A model generated the notes under the pieces. That model did no database searches and had not been told where the DNA came from. It saw nothing but the letters and a program-made list of their open reading frames with translations. The position numbers and the translations under genes are program-made. From a virus (lineage: Duplodnaviria; Heunggongvirae; Uroviricota; Caudoviricetes): DNA of 42,238 nucleotides. This document shows positions 91-40,908 of the stretch, one piece after another. Positions within the stretch are counted from its first letter, which is position 1, and every line of letters starts with the position of its first letter. The DNA lies in IMG/VR virus record IMGVR_UViG_2703718851_000004, positions 1 to 42,238 of that record. One strand, written 5' to 3'.

Positions 91-105
91 TTAGTATAAA
101 AAAGC
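91..105. repeat. attR: att core repeat at int-distal junction (attR-type)
   Basis: TTAGTATAAAAAAGC, reverse complement of lambda core GCTTTTTTATACTAA; identical copy at 40894..40908; host-like flank at 1..90. Confidence 0.9.
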
Positions 106-251
106 TGAACGTGAAACATTAAAAATCATTAATATCAATGCATTACAATATCTTTAGTCTAAAAAATAGACTACATAATGCGACAAAACACAACATATCC
201 AGTCACTATGAATCAACCACTTAGATGGTATTAGTGACCTGTAACAGAGCA

Positions 252-290
252 TTAGCGCAAGGTGATTTTTGTCTTCTTGCGCTAATTTTT
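252..290 (+). terminator. Hairpin plus T-run, terminator-like element between att arm and gtrA
   Basis: Perfect 10-bp stem TTAGCGCAAG/CTTGCGCTAA with 14-nt loop followed by TTTTT. Confidence 0.4.
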
Positions 291-549
291 TGTCAACATA
301 CTGGGTTATCTGAATTTACAACCATGCTCAGTATCTCGATAAGCGCAGAGAAATGATGCAGTGGTGGGCGGACTGGATTGATGAAAAGGTGGAGTGAGGA
401 AACTTAAACACCATCGGATAGCACAAAGCCTTGCAATCCAGTGCAAAGCTTTGTGTGTCTCAGTGTTGTCTCATCAACCACAGCAAGTATCGATCGATTG
501 AGACTTGGATGATAGACTTCATGCCTTTGATTATTAGCTGATAGAAGAA

Positions 550-912
550 ATGTTAAAACTATTTGCAAAGTACACCTCTATTGGCGTGCTGAACACCCTT
601 ATACACTGGGTGGTTTTTGGTGTATGTATCTATGCCGCGCATACCAATCAGGCTCTGGCAAACTTCGCAGGTTTTGTTGTGGCTGTGAGTTTTAGCTTCT
701 TCGCGAATGCAAAATTCACATTCAAAGCATCAACTACAACGATGCGCTACATGTTATATGTCGGGTTCATGGGAACACTGAGTGCTACTGTTGGATGGGC
801 TGCTGATAGATGTTCACTTCCTCCAATTGTCACTCTTGTCACCTTCTCCGCCATCAGCCTGGTGTGCGGTTTCGTCTATTCAAAGTTCATTGTCTTTAGG
901 GATGCGAAATGA
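550..912 (+). CDS. gtrA: GtrA-family bactoprenol-glucose flippase
   Basis: 120-aa hydrophobic ORF with GtrA-like sequence; first gene of three-gene cassette; stop overlaps gtrB start. Confidence 0.85.
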
Positions 913-1838
913 AGATATCTCTGGTCGTTCCTGTCTTCAATGAAGAAGAAGCGATACCAATTTTTTATAAAACGGTACGTGAATTCGAAGAATTGAAGTC
1001 ATATGAAGTGGAAATTGTTTTCATAAATGACGGCAGCAAAGACGCTACGGAGTCAATTATTAATGCTCTGGCTGTGGCCGATCCGCTTGTCGTTCCTCTT
1101 TCCTTCACCCGTAATTTCGGTAAAGAGCCCGCTCTGTTCGCCGGGCTTGACCACGCAACAGGTGATGCGGTTATCCCGATTGATGTTGACCTGCAGGACC
1201 CGATTGAAGTCATTCCTTATCTCATCGAGAAGTGGCAGGCAGGCGCTGACATGGTCCTGGCTAAGCGTTCTGATCGCTCCACCGACAGCAGACTAAAGCG
1301 CAAATCCGCTGAGTGGTTTTATAAGCTGCATAACAAAATAAGCAATCCGCAGATCGAGGAGAACGTCGGTGACTTCCGCCTGATGTCCCGTGCCGTGGTT
1401 GAGAACATCAAACTGTTGCCGGAGCGCAACCTCTTCATGAAGGGCGTTCTGAGTTGGGTTGGAGGGCGTACTGATGTTGTCGAGTATGCTCGCGCTGGGC
1501 GTGTCGCCGGAGACTCAAAATTCAATGGCTGGAAGCTCTGGAACTTGGCACTTGAGGGCATTACTAGCTTCTCAACCTTCCCTCTTCGCATGTGGACTTA
1601 TATTGGCCTGATGGTCGCCGGCCTGTCGTTTCTTTACGGCGCCTGGATGATTATCGACACGTTGGCTTTCGGTAATGCGGTACGTGGTTATCCTTCACTG
1701 TTAGTATCTATTTTGTTTCTGGGCGGAATCCAGTTAATAGGGATAGGTGTTCTTGGTGAGTACATCGGCAGAATTTACACTGAAGTTAAGCAGCGTCCTA
1801 GGTATATTTTGAAGGGCATTAAAAATGAAAAAAAATAA
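909..1838 (+). CDS. gtrB: GtrB bactoprenol glucosyltransferase (GT2 family)
   Basis: 309 aa; N-terminal GT2 motifs ([22 protein letters not shown]) and C-terminal TM helices. Confidence 0.88.
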
Positions 1839-3279
1839 TACTTATCACATCCCATTTATATTAATAGGGTTGTTTTATTTGCCATTCATCATAAACAATC
1901 AACTTTACGTTGATGATATTTTTAGGGCGCAGAATGGTTTTGATGGGTGGTCTCAAAACGGAAGGCCTTTAGCAGATTTGCTGATGCATCTGCTAATGAT
2001 ATCCTCATCCAAGTTACCTGGTTATGGAATATTTGGACAGGTATTATCAGTAGCAGTAATGTCAATGACAGCAATTTTCTATACTCGTCACATACTTGGT
2101 TCGACAAGCGTGGCAGCGTTAATTTGCGCGTCAGGCTTCGCGCTAAGTCCATTTTATATAGAAAACATGCTCTATCAGTACGATAACCTGCCAATGACGC
2201 TTTCACTTTGTGGTGCGGTTGTTGCTTCTGTCTACGCACTTAAAGAAGACAAAATCTACTTTATTGCATCTTTTATTATCATTGCTTTTAGCGCGGCTTT
2301 ATATCAGACATCAATAAATTCATACATAGCTCTTGTGGCAGTAAACTTAATTGTGAAATTAAAAAAATCTAATGACTGCGCAAAGGAAGTTATTATTTTA
2401 GCTTTAAAAGCAATGGCATCTCTCGCCATTGGCATGATTCTTTATTATTTTATAATAAAGGTTGCTTTCCCGATGACTGGAACAAGAGACCAGGCAATAT
2501 CGTTAGATGCGTCACTTATTGATTACTTTGTAAAAAGAATGGTTAGATTTTATACTTTATTAGAATCAAGTCTATCTATCTATTATGTGGCAATATATTT
2601 ATTGACTTTAGCGTTACTGGTAACAACAACCAAACCAAGAGTTTCGTTTTTAAATATCGCGATAATCATAATCTGTATTTCCGTGGTTGCCATATCACCA
2701 ATAGGAATGCTGGCGATTTTCGGTGAATCAGCCATTGCAGCGAGAATGATGATGGGGGCTGTAGGATTAACAGCTTTAATTTTCACCATGATATCCATAA
2801 GCGAAATTAGTAATAATAAAAAATATTTTGCAATCGCTGTCATCGCAATACCTTTATATGTAATTTCATATGGCTTTTCCTTTGCTATCAAAGAGCAGAG
2901 AATTTATGACAAGTCAATTTTATACCTGTCAATTAATGACATCAGAAATAGCTCAGATTACAATATAAATTCGTACATTGTATATTCTGGCAGGGCGCCA
3001 ATAGCTCCCTTATCGATAAATACTGTAAAAGCATATCCATTAATCTCTACAATGTTGGTTCCAACATATGATTGGACGTCTAGCATGGCTGCCCAGTCAA
3101 TCGACATCCCAAATGTAAAATTCAATTTTGCTAGAGAAGAACAGAAAAAGATAATATCCAATGTATGTGCATCTATAACCAAGCCAATAAAATCCACCAA
3201 TTCTTATTCGATATATTTCAACCAAGAAAACAATGGCTTTTTAATATGGTTAAAAGGAGGAGGCAACACCCCGTGCTGA
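1825..3279 (+). CDS. gtrC: GtrC-type serotype-specific O-antigen glucosyltransferase (polytopic membrane protein)
   Basis: 484-aa multi-TM ORF directly after gtrB, start overlaps gtrB stop; markedly AT-rich relative to flanks. Confidence 0.7.
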
Positions 3280-3312
3280 AGTAATTTGGGCGGCATCGCC
3301 GCCCATTAGTGC

Positions 3313-5472
3313 TTACGTCGAGTAGGTAAATGGCGGCTGCTCCTCCAGTGGAACAACTTTTAACCTATTAAGTGAGTAATATGCAGAGTTTCCGGTAAAG
3401 GTGAGAGTCAACACCCCCGTTGTTGAATTAAAGCTTGCAGATGGTGCTGGTATGGTAGATGTTCCAACTAAGCTTCTGCCTTGATATCCAGTAACGCTGC
3501 AAACATTACCCACCAAAACATTAAATCTTAAATCTTGCTGTAATGTTACAGCCACATTTTTCATTAGAAGCCTGCATGAGTATTCTCCCCCTGCCACACA
3601 ATTGCTTACCTGTATATCGAATGTGTTTGCTCCTTGAGCGATTGAAGGTGAACGCATGGTGTACACATCAAGAAGCCCTTTAAATTGGACTGTATAACCT
3701 CTCAACGGCGCTAAAGTATCAGCTATATTTTCTGTAATTGGATGCTCGCAATTTATTTTGATTCCATAACGCCCGAAGCCAAGATCTTTGGTAATCAATT
3801 TAAATGGTGATCCAATCTTCATGTCGTGAACATTGATCTGTGAGATATCAGTCTTGACTACCGCCCCACTTGACAGTGTGTTTCCAGATTGAACAGCAAA
3901 ATCTTTTATATCATGGTTGCAGAAAACACCGAACGTATTAATAGTTGACCCCACGCACTGACACCAAACTCGGTGACCAGTCTCGCTGGCGGCTACATTT
4001 ACACTCTCACTATAACCTCCGAAAACATTAACGTTACCACTATAAAAGAGGGCGAAATCTCGATTGTACCCCTCCCATGTTACTCCGTGCATATTTATGT
4101 CGACACAGTCGTGGGCATAGAGAAAAGTGGTGACATAGGCAATATTTGGTCTATTTGATACATCTCCGGATCTGTGGAACCATTGTGCCGTGCCTTTATC
4201 CCATGTTTGCGATAAATTACCAGTATAATATCCTCCTACCAAGTTTAGTGCCGTAGTGTGGGGTGTTAAAAATGTTGCATATTTAGCGCCTTGTGCAAAG
4301 CAATTCTCTACCGCAGTCCCCCAAGAACCACTTATCCAAAAGCTAACCTTACAGTCATACACTGCAACTCCAATCAGTTTGGCATCCGGAGTCCTCCAGA
4401 TTCTAATTCCCGCCTGCGTATCTGGACGGCCCAATAAAACAATATTCTCTATATATGGTCCATAATATCCAGCACTCAAATACAGCCCATTTTCCACACT
4501 GTTTGTCACTGTATATCTTGCAGTGCCGTCTGATAGCCATGGAGCGGTATCTAGAAGCAATTTATTTACATCCATGGACGTCATAGCAATAATAATTGAG
4601 CATCCTGCGCGTGAATATCTAAAGCCAGACGTTCCTCCCGTGCCAATTACCCTTACATTTGGAGAGAGATAAATAGTGTCATTAATGAAGTATTGAGCAG
4701 TTGGAAAAACAACATCCCCGCCTTGATGTGAGTCATATGAGGCATCAAGGTAAGGGTTTAGATATGAAATCGCAGCATTGATAGCTGGCGCGCAGTCGAA
4801 GGTACTATCGTTAATTTTTGCCCCAAACTCCAACGGACTCACCGTCCTTGCGACATACGCAGAGGATATCTCTCGCTTCCAGCGTCCTGTTCCAGTATTG
4901 CCAGTTGGGTTAATGGTATAGCCTCCGTCATCAGTATCAGTGCTGGTTGAATTCCAGCGGAAATATCCTCCGCCATAACCAGTTCCAAGGTGATAAGAAT
5001 CAACATAGACTCTTCCATTTTCCTTAACTGATGAGTATGCAGTAAATGCTCGTAGATCTGCTATTGATGAGAATGTACCAAATAATGCATAAGAATCAGG
5101 CGCAGACATCTTGGCAAGCCATTCTGCAGAAAACTGATCCGGGTCATACTTCAGCACATTAGGAAAATAGAACTGCTGCACACCGTATGCATCATAAACA
5201 GCCATCGAATGGCCTTGCACAGTTACGAACTTGGCAATCTGTCCGTTATATACCGGGTAACCAGCAGCGTTAATGATGATTGGTTGCGAAACAGGAACGT
5301 GAGATCCGTCTTCATTCTCTACATAAACCTGAATCTGGTTTTCAGTATTTACCGGGTCAGTGTCAATTTTTCCGATATAAATTTTGCCATTGGCTACGGC
5401 TTTAAAAGAACGAGCCATAGTGAAGAGTTGCGAAGGCATCGATACAATCACATTAGCTGTAATATCTGTCAT
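3313..5472 (-). CDS. Tailspike protein; P22-type N-terminal head-binding domain with divergent receptor-binding domain
   Basis: 719 aa; first ~110 residues match P22 gp9 head-binding domain from memory (MTDITANV...[11 protein letters not shown]...LKYDPDQ); last gene of virion module. Confidence 0.88.
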
Positions 5473-5905: not shown

Positions 5906-5927
5906 AGCCGGGTCACTCCGGCTTTTT
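5906..5927 (+). terminator. Intrinsic terminator after small ORF
   Basis: Stem AGCCGG/CCGGCT with loop GTCACT followed by TTTTT; overlaps the stop of the convergent 5913..6278 gene. Confidence 0.55.
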
Positions 5928-6278
5928 GATATGTCGCTCGCAGAACTCAACAAGCCTGCTCATTAAGTAGCAGTAAGTCTCGTTGGCTCTTCCTGGTTCA
6001 ACATCAACACCTACCCTTGAGCAGATATCGAATGCCATGTGAGCACACTCATGGGCAATAGTAGATAGTTTGCCATTGAACACGCCTATCACATGCAAAA
6101 CACCATTCTCGCTGCTCATTGTATGAGACGCTCCGTTGGCATCCGAGTCCTGCACGTCCACACCAAGTTTTTGATGCAGGCGTTGCCATTCTGGAAAGTC
6201 TCTACAAAACACAATTGTACCGCTCTCAAAGAGCGGAACGAGCATCTTTGGTACGTTTCCAATGTTAACTTTTTTCAT
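5913..6278 (-). CDS. Hypothetical 121-aa protein with HExxH zinc-metallopeptidase motif (mini-zincin-like)
   Basis: ORF with AGGA RBS; motif [11 protein letters not shown] (H76-E77-x-x-H80) with glutamates 14-20 residues downstream. Confidence 0.55.
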
Positions 6279-6308
6279 GGTATCCTGCGTAAAACTAAGG
6301 AGGTTGGT

Positions 6309-6803
6309 GTGTCTGATTCTATGAGTTACGCTGTGCTAGTTGCCGCAACTCTATTTCTGGGGATAGGGTTGCAGATTGCGTGGTTCTTTTTTTCTAGTTT
6401 TATTAAACGTAAAAGAATTGAATCAAGGATATCTGAGATTTCTATTGCTATAGGGAAAAATGCTGAAAATCCAGAGAATGAGGCCTGCGCACTGAATTAC
6501 CTTAAAGAAAAGTTTTCCCCTGAAAAATTTGAAAACAGAATTACTGATGCTCTTGGATTGGTAATATCAGTAATTCATATGCCACTAAGTTTACTGATAA
6601 CAGTGTGGTACTTCGCCATGATCGCCGGAAGAATATTTGGTTTCATGAATATAGATCCTGTAGTTCTTTGGGTTCCAATGATACTGCAATTGTTGTTAAG
6701 CGTTGCTATCTTTATTTTTTCTGTTTTTATAAAAATTGTCTTTGGAAGATACCCCGGAGAAGCGAAGGGATTTAATAAAGAATTCATAAAAACTATAAAA
6801 TAA
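6309..6803 (+). CDS. Hypothetical AT-rich integral membrane protein (about 4 TM segments); start GTG 6309 or ATG 6321
   Basis: AAGGAGG RBS at 6296..6302; four long hydrophobic stretches; AT-rich; divergent from the HExxH gene. The 6093 upstream extension of the ORF is judged non-coding. Confidence 0.6.
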
Positions 6804-6825: not shown

Positions 6826-8700
6826 CTACTGCCGGGTAGCTTCGTTAACTAAGAGCGGGCGCACGGCAGTAGCCGCCTGATTTAGCGCTCTTTCATAGGC
6901 TGGTGTTCCTGCTTTGGTGTTTGCCAAGCGTAAGAGAGCATTCCTTGCTGCTTTGGATTCATACAAGCGCATCATTGCACCGAAACCAGCCTCAAGCCCC
7001 ATTGATACGCCAAGAGTCGCAGTTGCGCCAATCGTCCTTATCCTGTTGGCTTGCGATTGCCCCGTCTGAGTTACTACATTTGCGGTGTCTGACCTTGCTG
7101 TTTGCTGTAGAACTTCATGAAGAGCATCAAGTTCTTTCATGTGCTTTCCAGAAAAAATAGTGTTGTAAATTTCACCGCCTGACTGAGATTTCAGCTTATT
7201 AACTTCAGTGATGAACTTGGCTGGAGAGTCACCTGCCTTTTCCGCTATTTTGCTGACGTAAGCTGCACGCATAGCATCTTTCCCTTTATCATCCAATGCG
7301 CTCCAGATTCGTTTCACGTCAGATGGTTTTCTACTTAATACAACGGTATTTATAAGTTCAGGACTGGCTTCACTGCTTGCCTTGTTGAGCTTGTTAGCAA
7401 TGTTTTTATTAAGCACCTTATTATAAACGTTTGCATAATCGGAATTTGCTTTAAGGTATTTTGCTGCGTCTGATGCACCTAGGTTTTTAGCAACTGCGTT
7501 ACGAAGGTCTTTTGACATTGCATTCTCTACCATATTGGTAGCTGCTTTTGCCTGGTTGGGGAAGACCATAGCATCTCCCTGAACATTAGATCTAAATGCT
7601 GTTCTGTGCTGGCGCAAGAGATCAAACGTAACATCCAAATCAGTTGCAGGGTTTGCTAATTCTTCACGTAGGTTACGCAAGGATGTAAGCAGGCTTTGAT
7701 TGGCAGACGTCCCAAGCCGTTCCTGTCTTGCGATCGCTGTATTCAGAGCATTCATGGTATTTGTGGTATCAACTGCGGCATTACCCATTTTATTGGTGAC
7801 GTCATTGATAACAGCGCCAGCGGCATCCTTCCGCCCCCTTAACGTGGTGGTCAGAGATTTCACCACATCATCAGGGTTGTACTCACCAAAACGGTCAAAA
7901 TAATTGCTTACCAGCTTACTACGCGTTGCATATTGCTCCGCTCTCTTTGAGCCTGTCCCGAGCAAAGCCCCCTCGGCATCCTGAGTAAGGCCGCGAGTGA
8001 AAGCATTTTTCGGCGGGATAACATCAGATGTCATTGGTGTCACGCCCATCGATTCTGATGTGGCAATTTTCTTCGCCACTTCTGGCGCAATATCACCTTT
8101 TATAGCCGTTATTCCACGCCCTATTCCCTTTGCTGCTGCGGAAAGAACCCCCTGAGCGGCAAGGTTAACTCCGGCATTTTTAGCTGCATTTTGTGCGAAA
8201 TCGCCTTTCTGATTTGCGGCCTCTGCCAGTGATCCAATAGCCATGCTTCCTGCCGTTCCAACTCCTGGAACTAAATACCCACCAATTGTTTCACCGGCTT
8301 GCGCGTAGGGGTCTGTCGGTCTGTCTACTGGACGATAAACATCATCCAAAACCTTGGGTCCACCAAGCCCCTGACTGATTGCATTAATCAGACTTGCGCC
8401 ACCCTGCAATACGTCAAATGGTATGTTTACCAGACCACGACCAGCCTGTTCTGCAATTTGCCCTGCACTTTGACCACCAGTGAGCCAATCGCCAGCTTGT
8501 TGCATCAATGATGGTTCTTCTTTCTGCTGCTGAGTCGGAGGGTATGCTGCATAAAACTGATCTCTTGCTTCAGCCCATTTGTCACCAGCCTTAGGGGCAA
8601 CAACCTCATCAAAATATTGCGCTTGAGCCTGTGCTTTCTGTTCTTCAGTTAACGCCTGATACTGTGGAGAGGCGATAACATCTTTCCATGCTTTAGCCAT
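6826..8700 (-). CDS. Ejection (injection) protein, P22 gp16-like
   Basis: 624 aa; last of three ejection-protein genes in P22-type order (7, 20, 16). Confidence 0.75.
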
Positions 8701-10088: not shown

Positions 10089-10097
10089 GATTACCCC

Positions 10098-30886: not shown

Positions 30887-30898
30887 AATGACTCCTGT

Positions 30899-31212: not shown

Positions 31213-31291
31213 ATGTAAGTATTTCCTTAGATAACAATTGATTGAAGGTATGCAAATAAATGCATACACCATAGGTGTGGTTTAATTTGAT

Positions 31292-31323
31292 GCCCTTTTT
31301 CAGGGCTGGGATGTGTAAGAGCG
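31292..31323 (-). promoter_or_regulatory. nutR (boxA CGCTCTTACACA and boxB GCCCTGAAAAAGGGC)
   Basis: Minus-strand sequence CGCTCTTACACATCCCAGCCCTGAAAAAGGGC between cro and cII. Confidence 0.85.
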
Positions 31324-31331
31324 GGAATGTC

Positions 31332-31547: not shown

Positions 31548-31575
31548 ATGCCCTCCATAGTAACCATGAAACAAT

Positions 31576-31649
31576 AATACGATATGTACTTTTAGAATGC
31601 AAACAAAAAATACATCTTGTGCATGGATGGTTTTAGTACAGAGCGTAAT
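31576..31649. promoter_or_regulatory. OR region with divergent pR/pRM and candidate operator sites
   Basis: Two 15-bp sites with dyad AGTAC-N5-GTACT character: AATACGATATGTACT (31576..31590) and AGTACAGAGCGTAAT (31635..31649). Confidence 0.5.
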
Positions 31650-31658
31650 AATAAGGGT

Positions 31659-32318: not shown

Positions 32319-32350
32319 CAGCCTCACCACTCTAAAGCACACAACAATAA

Positions 32351-32378
32351 CCCGACCTTAGTGTCGGGTTTTCTTTTT
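32351..32378 (+). terminator. Intrinsic terminator after cI
   Basis: Stem CCCGAC/GTCGGG with loop CTTAGT followed by TTTTCTTTTT. Confidence 0.7.
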
Positions 32379-32443
32379 CCAAAATATAAACCCATTAAAT
32401 ACAAAGCGTTATAAAAAACCAATTATATTTAGAACATTTTGTA

Positions 32444-32472
32444 TTGACTCGATAAAGTACAAATCGTACTAT
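32444..32472 (+). promoter_or_regulatory. Candidate pL promoter with overlapping OL operator
   Basis: TTGACT, 17-nt spacer, TACTAT; dyad site AGTACAAATCGTACT (32456..32470) overlaps spacer and -10. Confidence 0.5.
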
Positions 32473-32512
32473 TTAGCCATCAGCAGGACGCACTAACCAC
32501 CATTGAAGGTGA

Positions 32513-32543
32513 GGCTCTTAAAAATTAAGCCCTGAAGAAGGGC
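32513..32543 (+). promoter_or_regulatory. nutL (boxA variant GGCTCTTA and boxB GCCCTGAAGAAGGGC)
   Basis: GGCTCTTAAAAATTAAGCCCTGAAGAAGGGC upstream of N. Confidence 0.85.
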
Positions 32544-32653
32544 AGCATTCAAAGCAGAAGGCTTTGAGTAGCGCGAAATGCAGCTGCAAGACAGCAACCG
32601 TGGAGATAAGCATCACGGCGCGTTACTCAAAGCTAACTGACAGGAGAATCCAG

Positions 32654-32986
32654 ATGGATGCACAAACACGCCGCCGCGAACGTCGCGCAGAGAAACAGGC
32701 TCAATGGAAAGCAGCAAATCCCCTGTTGGTTGGGGTAAGCGCAAAACCAGTTAACCGCCCTATTCTCTCGCTGAATCGCAAACCGAAATCACGAGTAGAA
32801 AGCGCACTGAATCCGATAGACCTTACGGTGCTGGCTGAATACCACGAACAGATTGAAAGCAACCTGCAACGTATTGAGCGCAAGAATCAGCGCACATGGT
32901 ACAGCAAGCCACGCAGTGAAATGGGTGTGACTTGTGTTGGTCGCCAGAAGCAACGCGGAAAATCAATTCCAGCTTATTACGATTGA
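32654..32986 (+). CDS. N: Antiterminator N
   Basis: From MDAQTRRRERRAEKQAQWKAANPLLVGV..., matches lambda N from memory; AGGAGA RBS. Confidence 0.9.
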   Translation: MDAQTRRRERRAEKQAQWKAANPLLVGVSAKPVNRPILSLNRKPKSRVESALNPIDLTVLAEYHEQIESNLQRIERKNQRTWYSKPRSEMGVTCVGRQKQRGKSIPAYYD

Positions 32987-33256: not shown

Positions 33257-33457
33257 ATGACTACGACTATTGATAAGAATCAATGGTGTGGACAATTCAA
33301 GCGATGCAATGGATGCAAGCTGCAATCGGAATGCATGGTTAAGCCTGAAGAAATGTTTCCTGTAATGGAGGATGGGAAATATGTCGATAAATGGGCAATA
33401 CGAACGACGGCAATGATTGCCAGAGAACTTGGTAAACAGAATAACAAGGCTGCCTGA
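33257..33457 (+). CDS. ral: Restriction alleviation protein Ral
   Basis: 66 aa MTTTIDKNQWCGQFKRCNGCKLQSECMVKPEEMF..., matches lambda Ral from memory. Confidence 0.85.
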   Translation: MTTTIDKNQWCGQFKRCNGCKLQSECMVKPEEMFPVMEDGKYVDKWAIRTTAMIARELGKQNNKAA

Positions 33458-33498
33458 TGGTGGCCTTTATTTTTGGCATAAACAACAGAATAAACACT

Positions 33499-33536
33499 GC
33501 TCCGTGTATTCATTCCAACGAGTGAATACACGGAGC
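33499..33536. repeat. Perfect 14-bp inverted repeat with 10-nt loop
   Basis: GCTCCGTGTATTCA ... TGAATACACGGAGC; no clean T-run on either side. Confidence 0.8.
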
Positions 33537-33633
33537 AATGTCGCTCGTAACTAAACAGGAGCCGACTTGTTCTGATTATTGGAAATCTTCTTTGCCCTCC
33601 AGTGTGAGGGCAATTTTTTTTGATGGAGGATAT

Positions 33634-34602
33634 ATGAGTGAAGTAACAGATTTAGTTGTTATTGAAAAAGCAAATGCAATGACTGTATTTCAGTCTGCCG
33701 ACCAGATTGAAGAAATTCTCCAAAAGGTTGAACGTGAAGTTATGTCCTTTGTGCCTGATATCACAACGGCAAAGGGCAGAAAGGAGATCGCTTCTCTGGC
33801 GTATAAAGTTGCGCAGACGAAAACATATCTCGATGGTCTTGGCAAAGACCTTGTTGCTGAACTGAAGGAAATTCCAAAGCTAATTGATGCCAACCGCAAG
33901 ACAGTGCGCGATCGCCTTGATGAACTGAAAGCCAAGGCGCGCCAGCCTCTTACTGATTATGAGGAGGAACAGGCACGGATTAAAGCCGAAGAAGAAGCTA
34001 AGGCAGCAGCTGAAGCTCTCGCAAAGCAAATTGAGTCTGACCATGAAATAGCGATTTTGATGGATCGCGAATTTGACCGCAAAAGAGAAGAGGCAAGACT
34101 CAAAGTGGAGCAGGAAAAGCGAGAGCATGAAGAACGCTTAAAAAGAGAAGCTGAAGAGAAAGCCAGAGCAGAAGCCGAAGCAAAGGCAAAAGCCGAAATT
34201 GAAGCAGCAGCAAGGCGAGAAGCAGAAGCTAAGGCAGCAGCGGAACGTGCAGAGCGTGAACGCATTGAAGCCGAGCAACGAGCACAGCGCGAAGCAAAAG
34301 AGGCAGCAGAACGAGCTGAAAGAGAAAAGCAGGCGGCAATTGAAGCAGAACGCCGAAAAGCACAGGAGGAGGCTGAACGAATCCGGCGCGAGGCTGAAGC
34401 AAAAGAGCAAGCCAGAATAGCAGAAGAAAAAAGAATCAAGGAAGAAGAAGAGCGTAGAGCAAAGGATAAAGCTCACCGGAAAGAAGTAAATAACAAAATA
34501 CTTGCTGACCTTATCAAGGTTGGTGCATCAGAAGATGTTGCTAAAAATATCATAACAGCCATCGTAAAAGGCGAAGTATTCGCAACAAAAATAACCTACT
34601 AA
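33634..34602 (+). CDS. Hypothetical protein with long A/E/K/R-rich coiled-coil segment
   Basis: GGAGGA RBS before ATG 33634; central ~170 aa of repetitive EAKA/ERAE-type sequence. Confidence 0.7.
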   Translation: MSEVTDLVVIEKANAMTVFQSADQIEEILQKVEREVMSFVPDITTAKGRKEIASLAYKVAQTKTYLDGLGKDLVAELKEIPKLIDANRKTVRDRLDELKAKARQPLTDYEEEQARIKAEEEAKAAAEALAKQIESDHEIAILMDREFDRKREEARLKVEQEKREHEERLKREAEEKARAEAEAKAKAEIEAAARREAEAKAAAERAERERIEAEQRAQREAKEAAERAEREKQAAIEAERRKAQEEAERIRREAEAKEQARIAEEKRIKEEEERRAKDKAHRKEVNNKILADLIKVGASEDVAKNIITAIVKGEVFATKITY

Positions 34603-34626
34603 TAAAACCAACATAAGGAACCACCC

Positions 34627-34758
34627 ATGATTTACGCAATCGCGGGAGGCGCTCGCATGGGTGCCTTCCAACTAAATGAATCTTTACTTGAACGAATCAC
34701 CCGCAAGTTACGTGACGGATGGAAAAGAGTTGAGGTCTTATTATGCGCAATGAAATAG
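34627..34758 (+). CDS. cIII: CIII-like FtsH inhibitor
   Basis: 43-aa ORF containing ESLLERITRKLRDGWKR core as in lambda CIII; AAGGAA RBS. Confidence 0.7.
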   Translation: MIYAIAGGARMGAFQLNESLLERITRKLRDGWKRVEVLLCAMK

Positions 34759-34895
34759 CCATTAATCACCAGATGCTTCGTGCGGCACAAAACAAAGCAG
34801 TAATAGCCAGATTTATTGGTGATTCCAAAATGTGGCTTGAAGCAAATAAAGCGATGAAATCAGCTATCAACCTTCCGTGGTATCGCAGGAAATGA
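34743..34895 (+). CDS. Small protein, possibly Kil-like
   Basis: 50-aa ORF overlapping cIII stop and next start; ...ARFIGDSKMW... weakly reminiscent of lambda Kil. Confidence 0.35.
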   Translation: MRNEIAINHQMLRAAQNKAVIARFIGDSKMWLEANKAMKSAINLPWYRRK

Positions 34896-35050
34896 GTTTC
34901 ACAGATAACTGGTCAGACGAAGAATTCATTCGTCAGATGAAAGAATTAATCGGTAACGAAGGAGATATTCATGTCACTTGCAACCACAGTGAAGGAGAGC
35001 AAGTTACAGAGACGCATGTACACGCAGAAAGCTCTCTGGTATCGCCATAA
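34892..35050 (+). CDS. Small acidic hypothetical protein
   Basis: 52-aa ORF coupled by ATGA overlap to the upstream ORF. Confidence 0.35.
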   Translation: MSFTDNWSDEEFIRQMKELIGNEGDIHVTCNHSEGEQVTETHVHAESSLVSP

Positions 35051-35151
35051 TGGTGACCGCGAAGGAATGCGGGTATGCCTTAATTTGTCCCGAGTCGAAG
35101 TATTAAATCAGCGTTATTTCCTTGGTCCATGTCCATTCTGAGAACAATCAT

Positions 35152-35757
35152 ATGAGCAAAGAATTTTACGCAAGACTGGCAGTTATTCAGGAGAATCTGA
35201 ACGCGCCAAAAAATCAGTACAACTCATTCGGCAAATATAAATACAGAAGCTGCGAAGACATTCTTGAAGGCGTTAAGCCGCTACTGAATGGCCTGTTTTT
35301 ATCAATCAGCGATGAAGTTGTGTTGATTGGTGATCGGTATTACGTGAAAGCCACGGCAACTATTACCGATGGCGAAAACAGTCATACGGCAACCGCCCTT
35401 GCACGAGAGGAAGAAAGCAAGAAAGGAATGGATTCTGCACAAGTTACTGGAGCTACAAGCTCTTATGCACGCAAGTATTGCCTCAATGGTTTGTTCGGCA
35501 TTGATGATGCGAAAGATGCAGATACAGACGAGCATAAACATCAGCAGAACGCAGCAGCAAAGCAATCAAAACCATCACCTACACCTGAACAGGTTCTAAA
35601 AGCATTCACTGACGCAGCAATGCAAAAAAACACCGTAGAAGAGCTTAAACAGGCGTTCGCCAAAGCGTGGAAGATGCTCGAAGGCACACTTGAGCAGCAC
35701 AAAGCGCAGGAAGTTTACAACATCAGACGAGACGAATTAGAAGGAGCGGCTGCTTAA
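35152..35757 (+). CDS. erf: Erf single-strand annealing recombinase
   Basis: From MSKEFYARLAVIQENLNAPKNQYNSFGKYKYRSCEDILEGVKPLL..., matches P22 Erf from memory. Confidence 0.85.
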   Translation: MSKEFYARLAVIQENLNAPKNQYNSFGKYKYRSCEDILEGVKPLLNGLFLSISDEVVLIGDRYYVKATATITDGENSHTATALAREEESKKGMDSAQVTGATSSYARKYCLNGLFGIDDAKDADTDEHKHQQNAAAKQSKPSPTPEQVLKAFTDAAMQKNTVEELKQAFAKAWKMLEGTLEQHKAQEVYNIRRDELEGAAA

Positions 35758-36140
35758 TGGCACATTCGATTACTGTAAGACTAAACAAACCTGCAAGAGA
35801 GTTTCAGGCCGGGGAAAATATCGGATTCAACATCCGTGCTGGCGTTCAGTATTACGATCGCCAGACAAAAAAGAAAGAATGGACAAACTACAGCGCCGTT
35901 GTATTTGCCAAGCCGGGAGCGCAAGCGGATTACTATCGTAGCGTTCTGGTTGAAGGAGGCATTGTAGAAATTACCGGAGAAAACATCAGGGTTGATGTTT
36001 ATCAGGGGCAAAATGGTCAATCAATCACTCTTGAATTACTGAATGCAAAGATTGGATTTGCAACTTCAGGAAACAGCCAACAGCAGCAAAGTAGCAATCA
36101 TCAAAATCATCCTGAATACGACGATTCAATTCCCTTCTAG
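35757..36140 (+). CDS. Short single-stranded-DNA-binding protein with SSB-type acidic C-terminal tail
   Basis: 127 aa; Q-rich linker and C-terminal EYDDSIPF; AAGGAG RBS; start overlaps erf stop. Confidence 0.65.
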   Translation: MAHSITVRLNKPAREFQAGENIGFNIRAGVQYYDRQTKKKEWTNYSAVVFAKPGAQADYYRSVLVEGGIVEITGENIRVDVYQGQNGQSITLELLNAKIGFATSGNSQQQQSSNHQNHPEYDDSIPF

Positions 36141-36163
36141 ATTAGCAAAATAAGGATTCCATT

Positions 36164-36457
36164 ATGCCAGCGCCTCTGTATGGTGCGGATGACCCGCGCC
36201 GCTGTTCCGGCAATTCCGTATCGGAGGTGCTGGATAAATTCAGGAAAAACTACGACCGGATAATGTCGCTACCGCAGGAAACGAAAGAGGAAAAGGAATT
36301 TCGCCATTGTATATGGCTTGCAGAGAAAGAAGAACGCGAGCGAATTTACCAGACATCAATCCGACCATTCCGCAAAGCCACATATACCCACTTCCCTGAA
36401 ATTGACCCGCGCCTGCGTAATTACCGCTCACGCTATGGCGCTATCAGTAATGACTGA
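36164..36457 (+). CDS. Hypothetical protein
   Basis: 97-aa ORF in coupled early-left gene string. Confidence 0.5.
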
Positions 36458-36632
36458 GGAATTTACCATGAGAGGACTTGCATACAATCCCGGCATTCTT
36501 CCGGCAGAAATGATTATTCGCCAACGCGTAAAGCCAATGCCATCGAGAGAGGAATTGCTAAAGAGAAATTCTTTTCCGTCAGTGAATCAAAACAAATATC
36601 TGAATGCGATGTGGCGGAGTGGGAAGAAATGA
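36450..36632 (+). CDS. Hypothetical protein
   Basis: 60-aa ORF from [15 protein letters not shown]...; ATGA overlaps with neighbours. Confidence 0.4.
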
Positions 36633-37111
36633 AACAAATGACACTAATTGAGATGGATGGATTTCTGAAAGGTAAATGCATCCCAAGTGATTTAAAGGTT
36701 AACGAAACAAACGCTGAATATCTGGTGCGTAAATTTGCTGAAGCGGAGGCCAAGTGCGCGGCGCTGGCAGCGGAGAATGCGGGGCTGAAGTCTGGCGCTA
36801 TGGGCGAAATCAAGGTTATCAACCGTGGAGGGCAGGCATATTGCGTAAAAGATGGAGTGCAAGTTAATCCCATGTATGCAAGAGGGTGGAATGACTATCG
36901 CGCAAAGTCTCTGCAATCAGACACCCCAGCCACCGATGCTTTCCTGGCTGAAGTACGGGCGCAGGGGGTAGAGATGTACGCAGATAACCTCGACAACGGA
37001 GCAGACGACGCAGAACGAGGTGGTTTTGATGATGCCGTTAAGTTTCTACGCAGTGAAGCGTCTGGTGTACGTTTGTTCGCCGACCAGCTTCGCAAAGGAG
37101 GCAACCAGTGA
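36629..37111 (+). CDS. Hypothetical protein
   Basis: ORF from [15 protein letters not shown]...; start overlaps previous stop. Confidence 0.55.
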
Positions 37112-37653
37112 GTGTAACGGTTGAAAAGATTGATGTGTTGTCATTCGTTATAACCGGTGCAGAGCGACTAGATCCGGTTCGAGTGATGATTGAAAACTAC
37201 GAACCTGGTAAGGGAAGAATCACCATCACCTGCTACGGAAAAGCGTGGACTGCGGCTTGGTTTGCTATGGGCGGTGATGATGTGCAGACGTTCATTAAGC
37301 GGGTCAGCAACGAGTATCTAATCGGCTATTTCGACCCTCAACTGCGAAGCACGGTCGACGATGACAACGATGCAAATCTGCTTTTCGTGAAGTCAGAAAT
37401 CATAAAGTTACGAAGAGAGAGAGAAATCGACGCGGTACAGGCTCGAGAAATGTGGGACGAGGCGGAAAACGCCGATGACGTAAAAGAAAGCTGCTGTTGT
37501 TTCGGTGTCGGTAACAAACTGCTGAATCTCTTTGGTGATGATCCGTGGTATGCCGACTGGCCAACGGCACCAAACCCGAAATACCAGTATCTGGAACGCG
37601 TACTTAATGCAGTGAGAGACGGTCTTAAGCAAATAGAGAAGGTGGAACCATGA
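37108..37653 (+). CDS. Hypothetical protein (GTG start)
   Basis: 181-aa ORF with acidic central region and CCC motif; GTGA overlap with upstream stop. Confidence 0.55.
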   Translation: MSVTVEKIDVLSFVITGAERLDPVRVMIENYEPGKGRITITCYGKAWTAAWFAMGGDDVQTFIKRVSNEYLIGYFDPQLRSTVDDDNDANLLFVKSEIIKLRREREIDAVQAREMWDEAENADDVKESCCCFGVGNKLLNLFGDDPWYADWPTAPNPKYQYLERVLNAVRDGLKQIEKVEP

Positions 37654-37949
37654 CTGTATGTCTTATTGATAAACGTCGACGTGGGCAACAAATACCATCT
37701 GTTGAAATGCCGAATCACACATGGTTTTGCGTACTTGATATCGATGGTATGGATGCGTTGGTTAACACTCGTCATTACTGCGATACCGCAACAGCTACTC
37801 CGGCGAAAGCAAAGAAAATGGCTGATCTGATAGAAAACTGGACTCCACCTGATGGTTGGTGCAATGGGAATGATCGAGATTGGCATGAAAAAATGAAGGG
37901 CTATATCTGCGATTTCTTACGTAAATGCAACGGATTCAGGGTGATGTGA
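37650..37949 (+). CDS. Hypothetical Cys-containing protein
   Basis: 99-aa ORF, ATGA overlap with upstream gene. Confidence 0.5.
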   Translation: MTVCLIDKRRRGQQIPSVEMPNHTWFCVLDIDGMDALVNTRHYCDTATATPAKAKKMADLIENWTPPDGWCNGNDRDWHEKMKGYICDFLRKCNGFRVM

Positions 37950-37950
37950 C

Positions 37951-38649
37951 ATGAACAAGATTGACTATCAGGCACTGCGTGAAGCGGCAGAGAAAGCCGG
38001 TGAAGATAAGTGGCAGGCTAAAAAAATAAATGGTGATTTTTTCGTTATTCGTCACGGTAGTTATACAAGACAGCATGGCTACACATCGTATCAACCCATT
38101 GCGGAGATTGATTGTAAGCCAGTCCGGGATTTTGTTGCCAAGGCTAATCCGGCTACCGTGCTGGCACTACTGGATGAACGGGAAAGGAACCAGCAATACA
38201 TCAAACGCCGCGACCAGGAGAACGAGGATATTGCGTTAACGGTAGGGAAGCTGCGTGTTGAGCTGGAAGGCAAAGACAGCAAAATAGCCAATCTTACCGC
38301 CGAACGCGATGCTCTTCGTGAAGGTGAGATGGGCGACGCTAGGCATAGCAACACACGGGCCGCAGCTGATATCTACTTCCAACTGGTCGAGGAGTGCGAA
38401 ATTCCTGCTGGCGGATCTCTGGTCGAGTACGTTGACGATATGCGCGAGAAGCTGGAAGCCGCAGAGAAGCGCATTGCTGAGCTGGAGTTGCGGGAGGTTG
38501 TGCTTCCGCAATGCTATAGCATGTTGCATCGCGTCGATTTTGACGAGCCTTACCACACTGAAATGGTTTACAGGCAGCATCAGGTTCTTGAGGCACTGCA
38601 CAACGCTGGAATAAACGTCACCGAATCAGGTAAAGGAGAGGCATCATGA
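37951..38649 (+). CDS. Ead/Ea22-like early protein
   Basis: 232 aa; N-terminal MNKIDYQALREAAEKA and central coiled coil typical of Ea22-like proteins (from memory). Confidence 0.55.
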   Translation: MNKIDYQALREAAEKAGEDKWQAKKINGDFFVIRHGSYTRQHGYTSYQPIAEIDCKPVRDFVAKANPATVLALLDERERNQQYIKRRDQENEDIALTVGKLRVELEGKDSKIANLTAERDALREGEMGDARHSNTRAAADIYFQLVEECEIPAGGSLVEYVDDMREKLEAAEKRIAELELREVVLPQCYSMLHRVDFDEPYHTEMVYRQHQVLEALHNAGINVTESGKGEAS

Positions 38650-39164
38650 GCACTATCACAAGAGAATGGCTGCAGCAGGCTATCAACGATTATGAAAGCG
38701 TTCGTGATGAGCTTCCTTTCGGGCTTGATGATTACCAGGGGAATATCCTGGCTGCCCTGCGTATCGCACTGGCATCGCTGGAAGCAGAGCCGGTGGCGTG
38801 GAAGGTAACATTCACGCAAATTGACCGTGAATATAACACGTTCACTGGTATGTATTCTGACAAAGCAGAAGTCGAACGGTGGGTGCGGCTGCATAAAGCA
38901 TGTAATTTTCGGGCAGATATAACACCGCTTTATACCGCCAAGCCAGTGCCGGTAACTCCGGGTGGTTGGATAAGCTGTAGTGATCGAATGCCGGAAGACA
39001 CCAAAATGTTACTGGCATTTAGTCAAGGTGAAATCGTGGCCGCATATTGGAACTGGGTTGTAAATCCAATTGATTACAAAAAATATAGAGCTTTCACGTA
39101 TTTATCAGGAAATATCTTGGATGACGTAACTCACTGGATGCCGCTACCAGAGCCTCCACTTTGA
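38646..39164 (+). CDS. DUF551-like phage protein
   Basis: 172 aa; C-terminal HWMPLPEPP motif characteristic of the DUF551 family (from memory). Confidence 0.6.
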   Translation: MSTITREWLQQAINDYESVRDELPFGLDDYQGNILAALRIALASLEAEPVAWKVTFTQIDREYNTFTGMYSDKAEVERWVRLHKACNFRADITPLYTAKPVPVTPGGWISCSDRMPEDTKMLLAFSQGEIVAAYWNWVVNPIDYKKYRAFTYLSGNILDDVTHWMPLPEPPL

Positions 39165-39260
39165 AAGCGAAGCTTATACATATCTTTTACATCAGCAATC
39201 TATTGTTAATCTCCAATCAATGTTACGTTGTCATCTCACTCATGCTTTGGAGGTAGTGAT

Positions 39261-39440
39261 ATGTCTTGTCCAAAATGCGGTTCTGGAAATATTGCAAAAG
39301 AAAAAACAATGCGTGGATGGTCTGGTGATTATGTGTGCTGCGATTGCGGATACAACGACTCTAAAGACGCATTTGGAGAGCGTGGTAAAAACGAGTTTGT
39401 TAAAATTAATAAAGAACGCGAAGGCAACGAAAAAAGCTAA
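39261..39440 (+). CDS. Small zinc-ribbon protein
   Basis: 59 aa with CPKCGSG ... CCDCGYN motifs; GGAGG RBS 7 nt upstream of ATG. Confidence 0.6.
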   Translation: MSCPKCGSGNIAKEKTMRGWSGDYVCCDCGYNDSKDAFGERGKNEFVKINKEREGNEKS

Positions 39441-39503
39441 TTTATTTATTCATATATGAAAACAATGTAACCAATATTCGAATTGAAGAACTGAAAGAAC
39501 ACC

Positions 39504-39527
39504 AAACCGCCTGATGGCGGTTTTTTC
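39504..39527 (+). terminator. Intrinsic terminator upstream of xis
   Basis: Stem ACCGCC/GGCGGT with loop TGAT followed by TTTTTT. Confidence 0.7.
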
Positions 39528-39541
39528 TTGCGTGTAATTGC
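39528..39541 (+). promoter_or_regulatory. CII-binding site of pI (TTGC-N6-TTGC)
   Basis: TTGCGTGTAATTGC just upstream of xis start, as in lambda pI. Confidence 0.75.
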
Positions 39542-39553
39542 GGAGACTTTGCG

Positions 39554-39772
39554 ATGTACTTGACACTTCAGGAGTGGAACGCTCGCCAGCGACGTCCAAG
39601 AAGCCTTGAAACAGTTCGTCGATGGGTACGCGAATGCAGGATATTCCCTCCTCCGGTTAAGGATGGAAGAGAGTATCTGTTCCACGAATCAGCGGTAAAG
39701 GTTGACTTAAATCGACCAGTAACAGGTAGCCTTTTGAAGAGGATCAGAAATGGGAAGAAGGCGAAGTCATGA
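39554..39772 (+). CDS. xis: Excisionase Xis
   Basis: 72 aa MYLTLQEWNARQRRPRSLETVRRWVRECRIFPPPVKDGREYLFHESAV..., matches lambda Xis from memory; overlaps int start. Confidence 0.95.
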   Translation: MYLTLQEWNARQRRPRSLETVRRWVRECRIFPPPVKDGREYLFHESAVKVDLNRPVTGSLLKRIRNGKKAKS

Positions 39773-40820
39773 GCGCCGGGATTTACCCCCTAACCTTTAT
39801 ATAAGAAACAATGGATATTACTGCTACAGGGACCCAAGGACTGGTAAAGAGTTCGGATTAGGCAGAGACAGGAGGATAGCAATTACTGAAGCAATACAGG
39901 CAAACATTGAGTTATTTTCAGGACACAAACACAAGCCTCTGACAGCGAGAATCAACAGTGATAATTCTGTTACGTTACATTCATGGCTTGATCGCTACGA
40001 AAAAATCCTCGCCAGCAGAGGAATCAAGCAGAAGACACTCATAAATTACATGAGCAAAATTAAAGCAATAAGGAGGTGCCTGCCTGATGCTCCACTTGAA
40101 GACATCACCACAAAAGAAATTGCGGCAATGCTCAATGGATACATAGACGAGGGCAAGGCGGCGTCAGCCAAGTTAATCAGATCAACACTGAGCGATGCAT
40201 TCCGAGAGGCAATAGCTGAAGGCCATATAACAACAAACCCGGTCGCTGCCACTCGCGCAGCAAAATCAGAGGTAAGGAGATCAAGACTTACAGCTGACGA
40301 ATACCTGAAAATTTATCAAGCAGCAGAATCATCACCATGTTGGCTCAGACTTGCAATGGAACTGGCTGTTGTTACCGGGCAGCGAGTTGGTGATTTATGC
40401 GAAATGAAGTGGTCTGATATCGTAGATGGATATCTTTATGTCGAGCAAAGCAAAACAGGCGTAAAAATTGCCATCCCTACAACATTGCATGTTGATGCTC
40501 TCGGGATATCAATGAAGGAAACACTTGATAAATGCAAAGAGATTCTTGGCGGAGAAACCATAATTGCATCTACTCGTCGTGAACCGCTTTCATCCGGCAC
40601 AGTATCAAGGTATTTTATGCGCGCACGAAAAGCATCAGGTCTTTCCTTCGAAGGGGATCCGCCAACCTTTCACGAGTTGCGCAGTTTGTCTGCAAGACTC
40701 TATGAGAAGCAGATAAGCGATAAGTTTGCTCAACATCTTCTCGGGCATAAGTCGGACACCATGGCATCACAGTATCGTGATGACAGAGGCAGGGAGTGGG
40801 ACAAAATTGAAATCAAATAA
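39750..40820 (+). CDS. int: Tyrosine integrase Int
   Basis: 356 aa, near-identical to lambda Int from memory (MGRRRSHERRDLPPNLYIRNNGYYCYRDPRTGKEF...). Confidence 0.97.
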   Translation: MGRRRSHERRDLPPNLYIRNNGYYCYRDPRTGKEFGLGRDRRIAITEAIQANIELFSGHKHKPLTARINSDNSVTLHSWLDRYEKILASRGIKQKTLINYMSKIKAIRRCLPDAPLEDITTKEIAAMLNGYIDEGKAASAKLIRSTLSDAFREAIAEGHITTNPVAATRAAKSEVRRSRLTADEYLKIYQAAESSPCWLRLAMELAVVTGQRVGDLCEMKWSDIVDGYLYVEQSKTGVKIAIPTTLHVDALGISMKETLDKCKEILGGETIIASTRREPLSSGTVSRYFMRARKASGLSFEGDPPTFHELRSLSARLYEKQISDKFAQHLLGHKSDTMASQYRDDRGREWDKIEIK

Positions 40821-40893
40821 TGATTTTATTTTGACTGATAGTGACCTGTTCGTTGCAACAAATTGATAAGCAATGCTTTTTTATAATGCCAAC

Positions 40894-40908
40894 TTAGTAT
40901 AAAAAAGC
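40894..40908. repeat. attL: att core repeat at int-proximal junction (attL-type)
   Basis: TTAGTATAAAAAAGC; phage side 40821..40893 matches the lambda P' arm from memory; identical core at 91..105. Confidence 0.9.

Follow-up and report, generated by a model that had tools for sequence, protein, structure and literature searches.

The stretch of DNA analysed here (42,238 nucleotides, positions 1 to 42,238 of IMG/VR virus record IMGVR_UViG_2703718851_000004; hereafter, the window) carries a lambdoid prophage in which integration and early control genes similar to those of lambda are combined with a virion module of the P22/Sf6 type. The preliminary description of this prophage presented it as a useful natural chimera at the lambda attachment site, in which lambda integration and early control are joined to a virion of the P22/Sf6 type and a lysis cassette of the phage-21 type. 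The question that the locus raises is therefore whether lambda and phage 21 contributed to its recent history or the combination is a common one. Our analysis indicates that the window very probably contains one complete, apparently functional temperate P22-like prophage (Lederbergvirus, with the Sf6/HK620 head type) that is inserted at attB-lambda and represents a permutation of modules from the common lambdoid pool. The lambda-like stretches do not demonstrate a recent cross with lambda; they seem to be best explained as common-pool modules that are normal in P22-like phages of Escherichia coli.

Prophage boundaries and relationships with known phages

The 15-bp lambda core GCTTTTTTATACTAA is present in the window in exactly two copies, both on the minus strand (0 expected by chance), and the spacing between them, 40,803 bp, is the length of the prophage unit. 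With exact cores at both ends, the interval initially proposed, 91-40908, precisely delimits one prophage at attB-lambda. The left flank runs on into ybhB (PBP family) and then bioA on contig LOPG01000005.1 of GCA_001576135.1, which is 100% identical to window 1-15472 (15.5 kb compared) and thus very probably the source of the sequence, and the right flank is ybhC. The insertion, with its duplicated core, is between ybhC and ybhB/bioA at the attB-lambda of E. coli, and the prophage has the orientation of lambda, with int toward the gal/ybhC side and the P arm toward the bio side. Window 40-105 occurs unchanged (100% identity) in many E. coli genomes, and the attR junction (host flank, core, P arm and an adjacent relic of an IntS-type integrase gene described below; window 40-420) is covered to at least 80% in 688 of 5,426 complete E. 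coli genomes.

That the window is an assembly artefact, or two neighbouring prophage fragments joined in silico, is exceedingly improbable. Nothing specific points to such an origin, apart from the mosaic content that on its own could hint at it, whereas the lambdoid functions are encoded in the window once each, without redundancy, and in the canonical order, exact direct-repeat cores bound one 40.8-kb unit, the same sequence is found within a 433-kb contig, and each module boundary examined is spanned by homology to independent genomes.

To apportion the mosaic, we mapped the prophage base by base against lambda and eight Lederbergvirus references. The share of the prophage that lambda matches is just 15.5% (mean identity 96.6%), compared with 47.4% for Sf6 (97.0%), 47.3% for Sf101 (92.3%), 47.1% for 683R2 (96.6%), 44.5% for 720R6 (92.2%), 42.4% for Huey (94.0%), 37.4% for HK620 (95.7%) and 32.4% for P22 (82.1%). 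Each of the 6,321 positions that match lambda is matched by at least one Lederbergvirus reference as well, and 5,765 of them (91%) at equal or higher identity; in particular, Sf6, Sf101, Huey and 683R2 already carry the "lambda" N, nut, ral, nin and cII segments. The only sizeable exception is the end of ren with ninB (27381-27898), where the identity to lambda is 99.6%, against 97.5% for the best podovirus reference.

This distribution bears directly on the alternative that the prophage is a recent natural hybrid, in which lambda was the donor of integration and early control, phage 21 that of the lysis cassette, and a P22/Sf6-type phage the recipient. Such a scenario would account for the identity of 96-100% to lambda across Int, Xis, P', N, nut, cII, oop, ral and nin genes, for the ren-ninB stretch, which lambda matches better than the eight podovirus references do, and for the 21-type Q and endolysin. 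However, with every lambda-matching base found in sequenced Lederbergviruses, and given the features of the integration and late regions described below, we consider the recent hybrid very unlikely, and already largely refuted.

Comparison with individual phages shows which modules are shared with each. Sf6 (NC_005344) and HK620 (NC_002730) have head, packaging and most tail-machine genes that are 96-98% identical to those of the prophage at the nucleotide level, along with lambda-type N/nut, ral and nin genes and the same gene order, and Sf6 also has a Q21-type Q and tRNA-Asn/Thr. Both differ in that they have an IntS-type integrase, with an attP of the argW type that separates int from xis; their holin and endolysin form an S/R pair of the lambda type, oac or a polymerase takes the place of gtrABC, and immunity, replication genes and the tailspike receptor domain are different as well. 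The P22-like prophage 720R6 (ON470605), deposited with the flanks uvrB, bioDCFB, bioA and ybhB, sits at the same att-lambda junction on the bioA/ybhB side and has xis-int of the lambda type at its opposite end; it shares the immunity region (99.4%), TerS (100% of amino acids), the primase/helicase replication module (99%) and the IntS relic but has another head type (with no match in the coat/scaffold region), another tailspike, other lysis genes and a different set of nin genes, and lacks gtrABC. Huey (PQ850609) and JEP4 (MT740315) are free-living temperate Lederbergviruses that share int-xis-attP (98.5-98.6%), the IntS relic and the P-arm allele, and the nin region of Huey, including the gene for a 280-amino acid PAPS-reductase-like protein, is 98-99% identical to that of the prophage; neither phage has its head type, tailspike, immunity or lysis genes. 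Lambda (NC_001416) shares the site, orientation, Int/Xis/P', N, nut, cII, oop, ral, ninB, ninF, ninG, ninH, ninI and the C-terminal domain of cI; it has no homologous virion genes, has its own cI DNA-binding domain, cro, operators, O/P, Red, Q, holin and endolysin, differs in the core-proximal P arm and lacks the IntS relic. Lederbergviruses typically combine lambda-like lysogeny control with high mosaicism, and Huey is temperate and lysogenises K-12 (PMC11990801). Given this description of the genus and the presence of 720R6 at the same junction, the combination of modules that had seemed remarkable at att-lambda is therefore an established pattern, and close variants of the prophage have been sequenced before. 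The more general proposal, that a lambdoid mosaic with a virion of the P22/Sf6 type is integrated at att-lambda by lambda-type Int, Xis and attP, is supported; the view of it as a notable chimera of lambda itself is not.

Table 1. Features of the window (coordinates in window positions)
Feature	Coordinates	Strand	Basis or comment
Host flank, bio/ybhB side (B' arm of attB)	1..90	.	identical to GCA_001576135.1
attR core, 15 bp, identical to lambda core	91..105	-	direct match
Lambda-type P arm including tI/sib hairpin (~244-293)	106..297	-	sib position from HK97 annotation
Relic: last 27 codons and stop of IntS-type integrase gene	314..397	+	translation IYNHAQYLDKRREMMQWWADWIDEKVE, then stop
Hairpin, probable terminator	420..457	.	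common to lambda 27473-27510 and phage 434/JEP4
gtrABC operon: gtrA 550-912, gtrB 909-1838, gtrC 1825-3279	550..3279	+	PF04138, PF00535, PF14264
Tailspike, 719 amino acids: P22-type head-binding domain, rare beta-helix receptor-binding domain	3313..5472	-	
immI position: HkcC-like protein, 121 amino acids (5913-6278, -); SieA-like superinfection exclusion protein (6309-6803, +)	5913..6803		PF26849 SIEA
Virion and packaging: gp16, gp20, gp7, gp14, gp26, gp10, gp4, coat, scaffold, portal, TerL, TerS, DUF2560	6826..20465	-	
Sf6 gene 66-like protein	20569..20949	-	PF13876
Lysis: Rz with embedded Rz1 (21328-21807), signal-anchor-release-type endolysin (21792-22295), class II holin (22267-22470)	21328..22470	-	
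tRNA-Thr(TGT) and tRNA-Asn(GTT), between Q/pR' and holin	22715..22869	-	same pair in Sf6, 720R6
Q antiterminator, phage-21 type	22933..23451	-	PDB 6p18/6jnx, E ~1e-92, 162 residues
nin region: ninI, ninH, ninG, ninF, NinX/DUF2591, ninE, 280-amino acid protein, Dam, ninB	23448..27839	-	
Replication: 626-amino acid primase/helicase (27899-29779), O-like initiator (29887-30747)	27899..30747	-	
nutR, tR1, pRE, cII (30919-31212), oop (30897-30973), lambda-like	30879..31325	-	
Immunity: cro (31332-31556, -), OR, cI (31665-32318, +), OL/pL	31332..32480	.	
nutL and N (32654-32986)	32478..32986	+	lambda alignment
Early-left operon: ral, Sf6 gp33-like protein, cIII, kil, erf, SSB-like, abc2, Ea22-like/DUF551-type and unknown open reading frames	33257..39459	+	
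xis (39554-39772) and int (39750-40820), lambda type	39554..40820	+	lambda comparison
attL: P' arm and core 40894-40908	40820..40908	-	P' 74/74 vs lambda
Host ybhC, continuing to window end	40955..42238	+	100% identity in several complete E. coli genomes

The integration module

The int-xis-P' segment (39467-40908) is 98.1% identical to lambda at the nucleotide level (blastn), with 352 of 356 amino acids identical in Int, 71 of 72 in Xis, and 45 of 46 positions in the pI region; the components of a lambda-type integration system are thus present, namely orthologues of both proteins and arm-type sites in the P' arm. This segment is covered to at least 80%, at ~98% identity, in 56 phage records, which include lambda, 434, HK97, HK106, HK629/630, 2B8, ev099, mEp332 and O276 as well as the podoviruses JEP4, Huey and 720R6. 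Identity to the records of 434, HK97, HK106, 2B8, JEP4, Huey and 720R6 is 98.3-98.8%, and the version in the window is marginally nearer 2B8, JEP4, Huey, 434 and HK97 (98.5-98.8%) than lambda, which argues against a recent lambda donor.

The contrast between a P arm diverged from that of lambda and an identical P' arm, noted at the outset, is real: the P arm is identical to lambda in 136 of 160 positions (87.4% in the blastn segment 87-301), compared with the complete identity of the P' arm. The divergence is concentrated next to the core, where window 106-190 matches lambda in 63 of 85 positions, whereas 104 of 107 positions agree in the distal arm (191-297), which includes the tI/sib hairpin. 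This is not a special lesion. In an eight-way alignment, the same core-proximal patch matches JEP4 in 82 of 85 positions, HK97 in 80, Huey in 77, 434 in 73 and 720R6 in 66; hence the window carries the allele of the HK97/JEP4/434 type, and the closer fit to JEP4 and HK97 than to lambda is another point against the recent hybrid. Identity in the patch ranges from 74 to 96% between phages that agree at 97-100% in Int, Xis, P' and the distal P arm, so that the patch is hypervariable in a cassette that is conserved elsewhere; it is the one slightly unusual feature of the prophage. In lambda, the patch corresponds, as we take it, to the region of the Xis, Fis and IHF-H2 sites. The lambda-annotated Int arm site "int 1" (27583-27602) is unchanged, "int 2" (27615-27634) has one mismatch, and an IHF-type motif inside the patch, TATCAA-N4-TTA, is invariant in all eight aligned sequences. 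Presumably, the two TATGT-type Xis repeats are kept as well, and the changes lie in Fis, spacer and H2-flank sequence. Judging from these motifs, the P arm has the Int arm-type sites P1 and P2 and predicted sites for the accessory proteins.

Between the P arm with sib and the gtrA promoter lies the relic of an IntS-type integrase gene, which is preceded by an in-frame stop. Its translation is identical to the C-terminus (last 27 residues) of Int of a related IntS-type prophage, L016, and the homologous 3' end of Sf6 int shows 96% nucleotide identity over 77 bp. Phage 434, a siphovirus, has the relic beside its P arm too (77/84), as do JEP4, Huey and 720R6, but lambda, HK97 and 2B8 lack it in the eight-way alignment, a distribution that again does not favour lambda as a recent donor. 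In prophages that have an IntS-type integrase beside gtrA (L011 and L015-L017), the sequence from window position 314 to 7121/8520 is common to the window at 99.9-100%; because these prophages match from 314 onward, the lambda-type cassette meets the IntS-type backbone exactly at the relic. We considered the relic as proof that IntS was replaced in this particular podovirus and rejected this interpretation, the same relic being found beside the P arm in the four phages named above. The relic is therefore best read as a shared exchange boundary: it seems to mark the sequence where integration modules swap by homologous recombination, rather than a scar private to this genome, and it may either travel with the cassette or be a recurrent crossover point.

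A functional extension of these observations would be that the P-arm alleles, instead of reflecting neutral mosaicism, tune the control of excision (through dependence on Xis, Fis and IHF) or the compatibility of co-resident prophages, and that the relic serves as a crossover point for swaps between lambda-type and IntS-type integration modules. Taken jointly, we regard these proposals as improbable.

Early control, immunity and replication

In the blastn comparison, lambda matches the window in 16 segments. Apart from the integration module and the ren-ninB stretch, these include part of N (98.9%), nutL (96.6%), the C-terminal half of cI (94.3%), nutR-cII-oop (96.9%), ral (96.2%), ninF to ninI (97.4%), ninE, a stretch before the holin gene and the 5' part of Rz (91.8%). 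The N proteins are identical in 98 of 107 amino acids, with the differences confined to the ~25 C-terminal residues. The oop and nut sites were assessed by direct alignment to lambda, and a search of the window with Rfam recognised the two tRNAs and nothing else. The boxB sequence is exact in both nutL and nutR, and boxA is exact in nutR and has one mismatch in nutL; an N with an arginine-rich N-terminus and boxA/boxB downstream of both pL and pR are the components of lambda N/nut antitermination. Likewise close to lambda are nutR/tR1 (90/92), the pRE region (46/46) and oop (73/77) and, at the amino acid level, CII (95/97), Ral (66/66), NinB (146/146), NinH (68/68), NinG (199/204) and NinI (211/221). 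The direct alignments, mostly at 96-100%, thus bear out the lambda-like character previously assigned to int, xis, P', pI, N, nutL, nutR, cII, oop, ral and several nin genes.

The nin region and the early-left operon also contain genes of other affinities. The position of ninC is occupied by the gene for the 280-amino acid PAPS-reductase-like protein (25815-26657, minus strand), which is 99% identical to its Huey counterpart at the nucleotide level and unrelated in DNA sequence to lambda ninC; after it comes a gene for a Dam-type methyltransferase (26845-27444). PADLOC recognised no defence system among the accessory genes, reporting only a weak SspD-like match for the PAPS-reductase-like protein (E=6e-8) and orphan-methyltransferase matches for Dam. 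Between ral and cIII, a homologue of Sf6 gp33 is encoded (33538-34602, plus strand), a highly charged coiled-coil protein of 354 amino acids with EAK-rich repeats; Sf6 gp33 homologues are often annotated as TolA-like.

Immunity, replication and recombination were proposed to be of non-lambda origin, and this holds for all three modules. The match to lambda is absent from the N-terminal half of cI through cro (31326-31907) and across the OL operators, to resume at nutL (blastn), and the ~95 N-terminal amino acids of cI cannot be aligned with those of lambda; hence the operators, cro and the N-terminus of cI differ, and the immunity is not that of lambda. Instead, the region 31300-32480 with cro, the operators and cI is 99.1-99.4% identical at the nucleotide level to 720R6, Dewey, 683R2 and Louie, and ~93% identical to several Stx phages. 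The non-lambda assignment applies, however, to the specificity only: cI itself is a mosaic, in which a non-lambda DNA-binding domain is joined near residue 95 to a lambda-like C-terminal domain (94% nucleotide identity). The latter contains a VQAG/MF motif, which we take to be the counterpart of the lambda cI self-cleavage site. With this RecA-cleavable lambda-type domain kept, the prophage should be inducible by the SOS response in a RecA-dependent manner.

The replication module, a primase/helicase and an O-like initiator, is 95% identical to Sf101 at the nucleotide level and shows iteron-like repeats at 30308-30349, within the initiator gene. The recombination genes encode Erf (35122-35757), an SSB-like protein and Abc2.

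The late region

The preliminary description assigned the lysis cassette to the phage-21 type, and the late region agrees with this in part. The Q antiterminator is similar to 6p18/6jnx, which we assume to be Q21, and is 98% identical at the amino acid level to Q of Sf6 and Huey. The endolysin (PF00959) is identical in ~157 of 165 residues to 3hde (E=4.7e-107), presumably the phage 21 enzyme, and in ~159 of 165 to RrrD of DLP12 (4zpu), with the similarity to both including the N-terminal hydrophobic signal-anchor-release segment. The holin, by contrast, belongs to the HP1 family (PF16080, 75.1 bits, with a cut-off of 28.8), and the score with the P21 holin S family (PF04971, 19.5 bits) is below the cut-off of 26; an origin of the whole cassette from phage 21 is thereby ruled out, which also counts against the recent hybrid. 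Thus, Q and the endolysin are common to the prophage and the late region of phage 21, and the holin family and the lambda-like 5' part of Rz set them apart. The small, class-II-like holin begins with M-Y-R-M, a dual start as in holin/antiholin pairs. Rz is a hybrid gene, its lambda-like 5' part being followed by other sequence, and the embedded Rz1 lipoprotein frame has a VAGC lipobox.

This region is closely similar to that of P22-like phages of Salmonella. The block that begins at the end of Q and includes the tRNAs, holin, endolysin and Rz is ~95% identical at the nucleotide level, over 98% of its length, to SPN9CC, 118970_sal4 and SPLA1b, with both tRNAs annotated in SPN9CC and SPLA1b, and the more distant ST104 aligns with 79% of it at 92%; this similarity, too, argues against direct transfer of a lysis cassette from phage 21. 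These four phages differ from the prophage in their Salmonella hosts and integration modules; they were compared within this block, and beyond it, 118970_sal4 matched ~32% of window 1-25000 at 87%.

Virion, tailspike and conversion genes

The P22/Sf6-type morphogenesis recognised from the outset stands. All 13 virion and packaging genes are full-length and in the P22 order, and from gp14 through TerL, the proteins are 97-100% identical to homologues from Sf6, HK620 and 683R2, e.g., coat 99.8%, scaffold 100%, portal 99.7%, TerL 99.8%, gp10 98.5% and gp4 99.4%. Outside this range of genes, gp20 is 99.4% identical to that of 683R2, TerS matches that of 720R6 as given above, gp16 is 77% identical to P22, and gp7 matches at 98-99% in residues 1-167 of 230 only. 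The Pfam families detected on the identical contig are P22_CoatProtein, P22_Tail-4, Phage_stabilise, P22_gp7, Inj_translocase and Phage_P22_gp16. The stretch with gp16 and sieA (window 6000-8500) is similar to Salmonella P22 (~81% at the nucleotide level), its neighbours being similar to Sf6/683R2 at 95-98%, so that it appears as a Salmonella-type patch within an E. coli-type virion module.

In the tailspike, identity to the reference proteins is 74-94% over residues 1-117 (PF09008, Head_binding), and the remainder is unrelated to them; the receptor-binding domain has no match among the nine reference phages. The gtrABC operon, which encodes proteins of the GtrA_DPMS_TM, Glycos_transf_2 and Glucos_trans_II families, lies between attR and the tailspike gene, which is the P22 arrangement after circularisation. 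GtrA and GtrB are 79% and 88% identical to those of P22, compared with just 27% for GtrC, which matches the PHROG family GtrC-like; by these assignments, gtrABC is predicted to be an O-antigen glucosylation (serotype conversion) operon. The exact GtrC and tailspike proteins were found on 3 and 9 contigs, respectively, of a large contig collection, including contigs of the other prophage type described next.

The block that starts in the 3' part of gtrA, spans gtrB and gtrC and extends into the receptor part of the tailspike (window 649-4837) is 97.5% identical to positions 4825-9013 of L012/L014, a different prophage type, in which the tailspike has 811 amino acids and lacks the P22 head-binding domain, the endolysin is of the GH19 type and the holins are different; therefore, the conversion-plus-receptor cassette moves between virion types. 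Another relative, L011/L015 (GCA_958328435.1), combines an identical tailspike-gtr module with an IntS-type integrase and is decaying, with portal, coat and gp16 of 442, 145 and 223 amino acids.

At the immI position, next to the SieA-like protein (94% identical to P22 SieA), a 121-amino acid protein is encoded that is 100% identical to HkcC of HK620. It has no Pfam or PADLOC match and contains an HEXXH motif (HECAH), which suggests a small metalloprotease-like protein.

Completeness, predicted life cycle and implications

It is unlikely that the prophage is defective (cryptic), that is, looks complete but is unable to excise or to form particles. The decay of the relatives with the same gtr-tailspike module, in which portal, coat and gp16 are truncated, would be in line with such a state, as would the departure of the P arm from lambda within the region that binds Xis, Fis and IHF in lambda; however, both cores, the P' arm, Int and Xis are intact, and the P-arm allele is that of the viable phages HK97, JEP4 and Huey. 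In addition, the structural, lysis, replication and regulatory open reading frames are full-length relative to their homologues, no insertion sequence element or frameshift was seen in the window, and the size of 40.8 kb fits a P22-like headful (38.3-41.7 kb in the references).

Several observations weigh against the interpretation of the window as a complete prophage assembled from common-pool modules. Its apparent intactness is judged solely from the full-length open reading frames and the intact att sites. Some exchange with a lambda-like phage at the end of ren and ninB is possible and cannot be dated. Neither half of the prophage is covered to 80% or more in any of 50,697 phage records or in the 5,426 complete E. 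coli genomes, so that no single, already characterised phage was found with which the prophage could be equated; and in the same E. coli genomes, gtrC with the receptor part of the tailspike has no close match, the best being 50% coverage at 90.6%. The genome is, accordingly, a previously uncatalogued permutation, in which the modules, checked against databases bar a few short stretches, are all known.

From the gene content, in which the genes and sites concerned are all intact in sequence, the following life cycle can be proposed. Int and IHF would integrate the circular 40.8-kb genome at attB, and cI, with the specificity found in 720R6, 683R2, Dewey and Louie, would repress pL and pR and so maintain lysogeny. 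By homology, the lysogen is expected to express gtrABC, modifying the O-antigen, and SieA, excluding superinfecting phages. Cleavage of cI upon SOS induction would derepress N-dependent early transcription; Xis with Int would excise the genome, and the O-like initiator with the primase/helicase would replicate it. Antitermination of the Q21 type at pR' would then lead to expression of the holin, endolysin and Rz/Rz1 genes and of the genes for P22-type headful packaging and assembly, with lysis probably effected by the class II (HP1-family) holin, the R21-type signal-anchor-release endolysin and Rz/Rz1.

The rare pair of gtrC and tailspike, which probably defines an O-antigen specificity, would be useful for studies of serotype conversion and receptors, and the natural series of P-arm alleles would offer a means of testing how much variation the lambda intasome tolerates. 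With regard to the evolution of these phages, the import of this prophage beyond cataloguing is small: it is a clean, apparently intact case of E. coli P22-like phages drawing on the common lambdoid pool. Siphoviruses (lambda, 434, HK97) and podoviruses both use the "lambda" integration cassette, and more than 10% of complete E. coli genomes have a phage of this kind at att-lambda.

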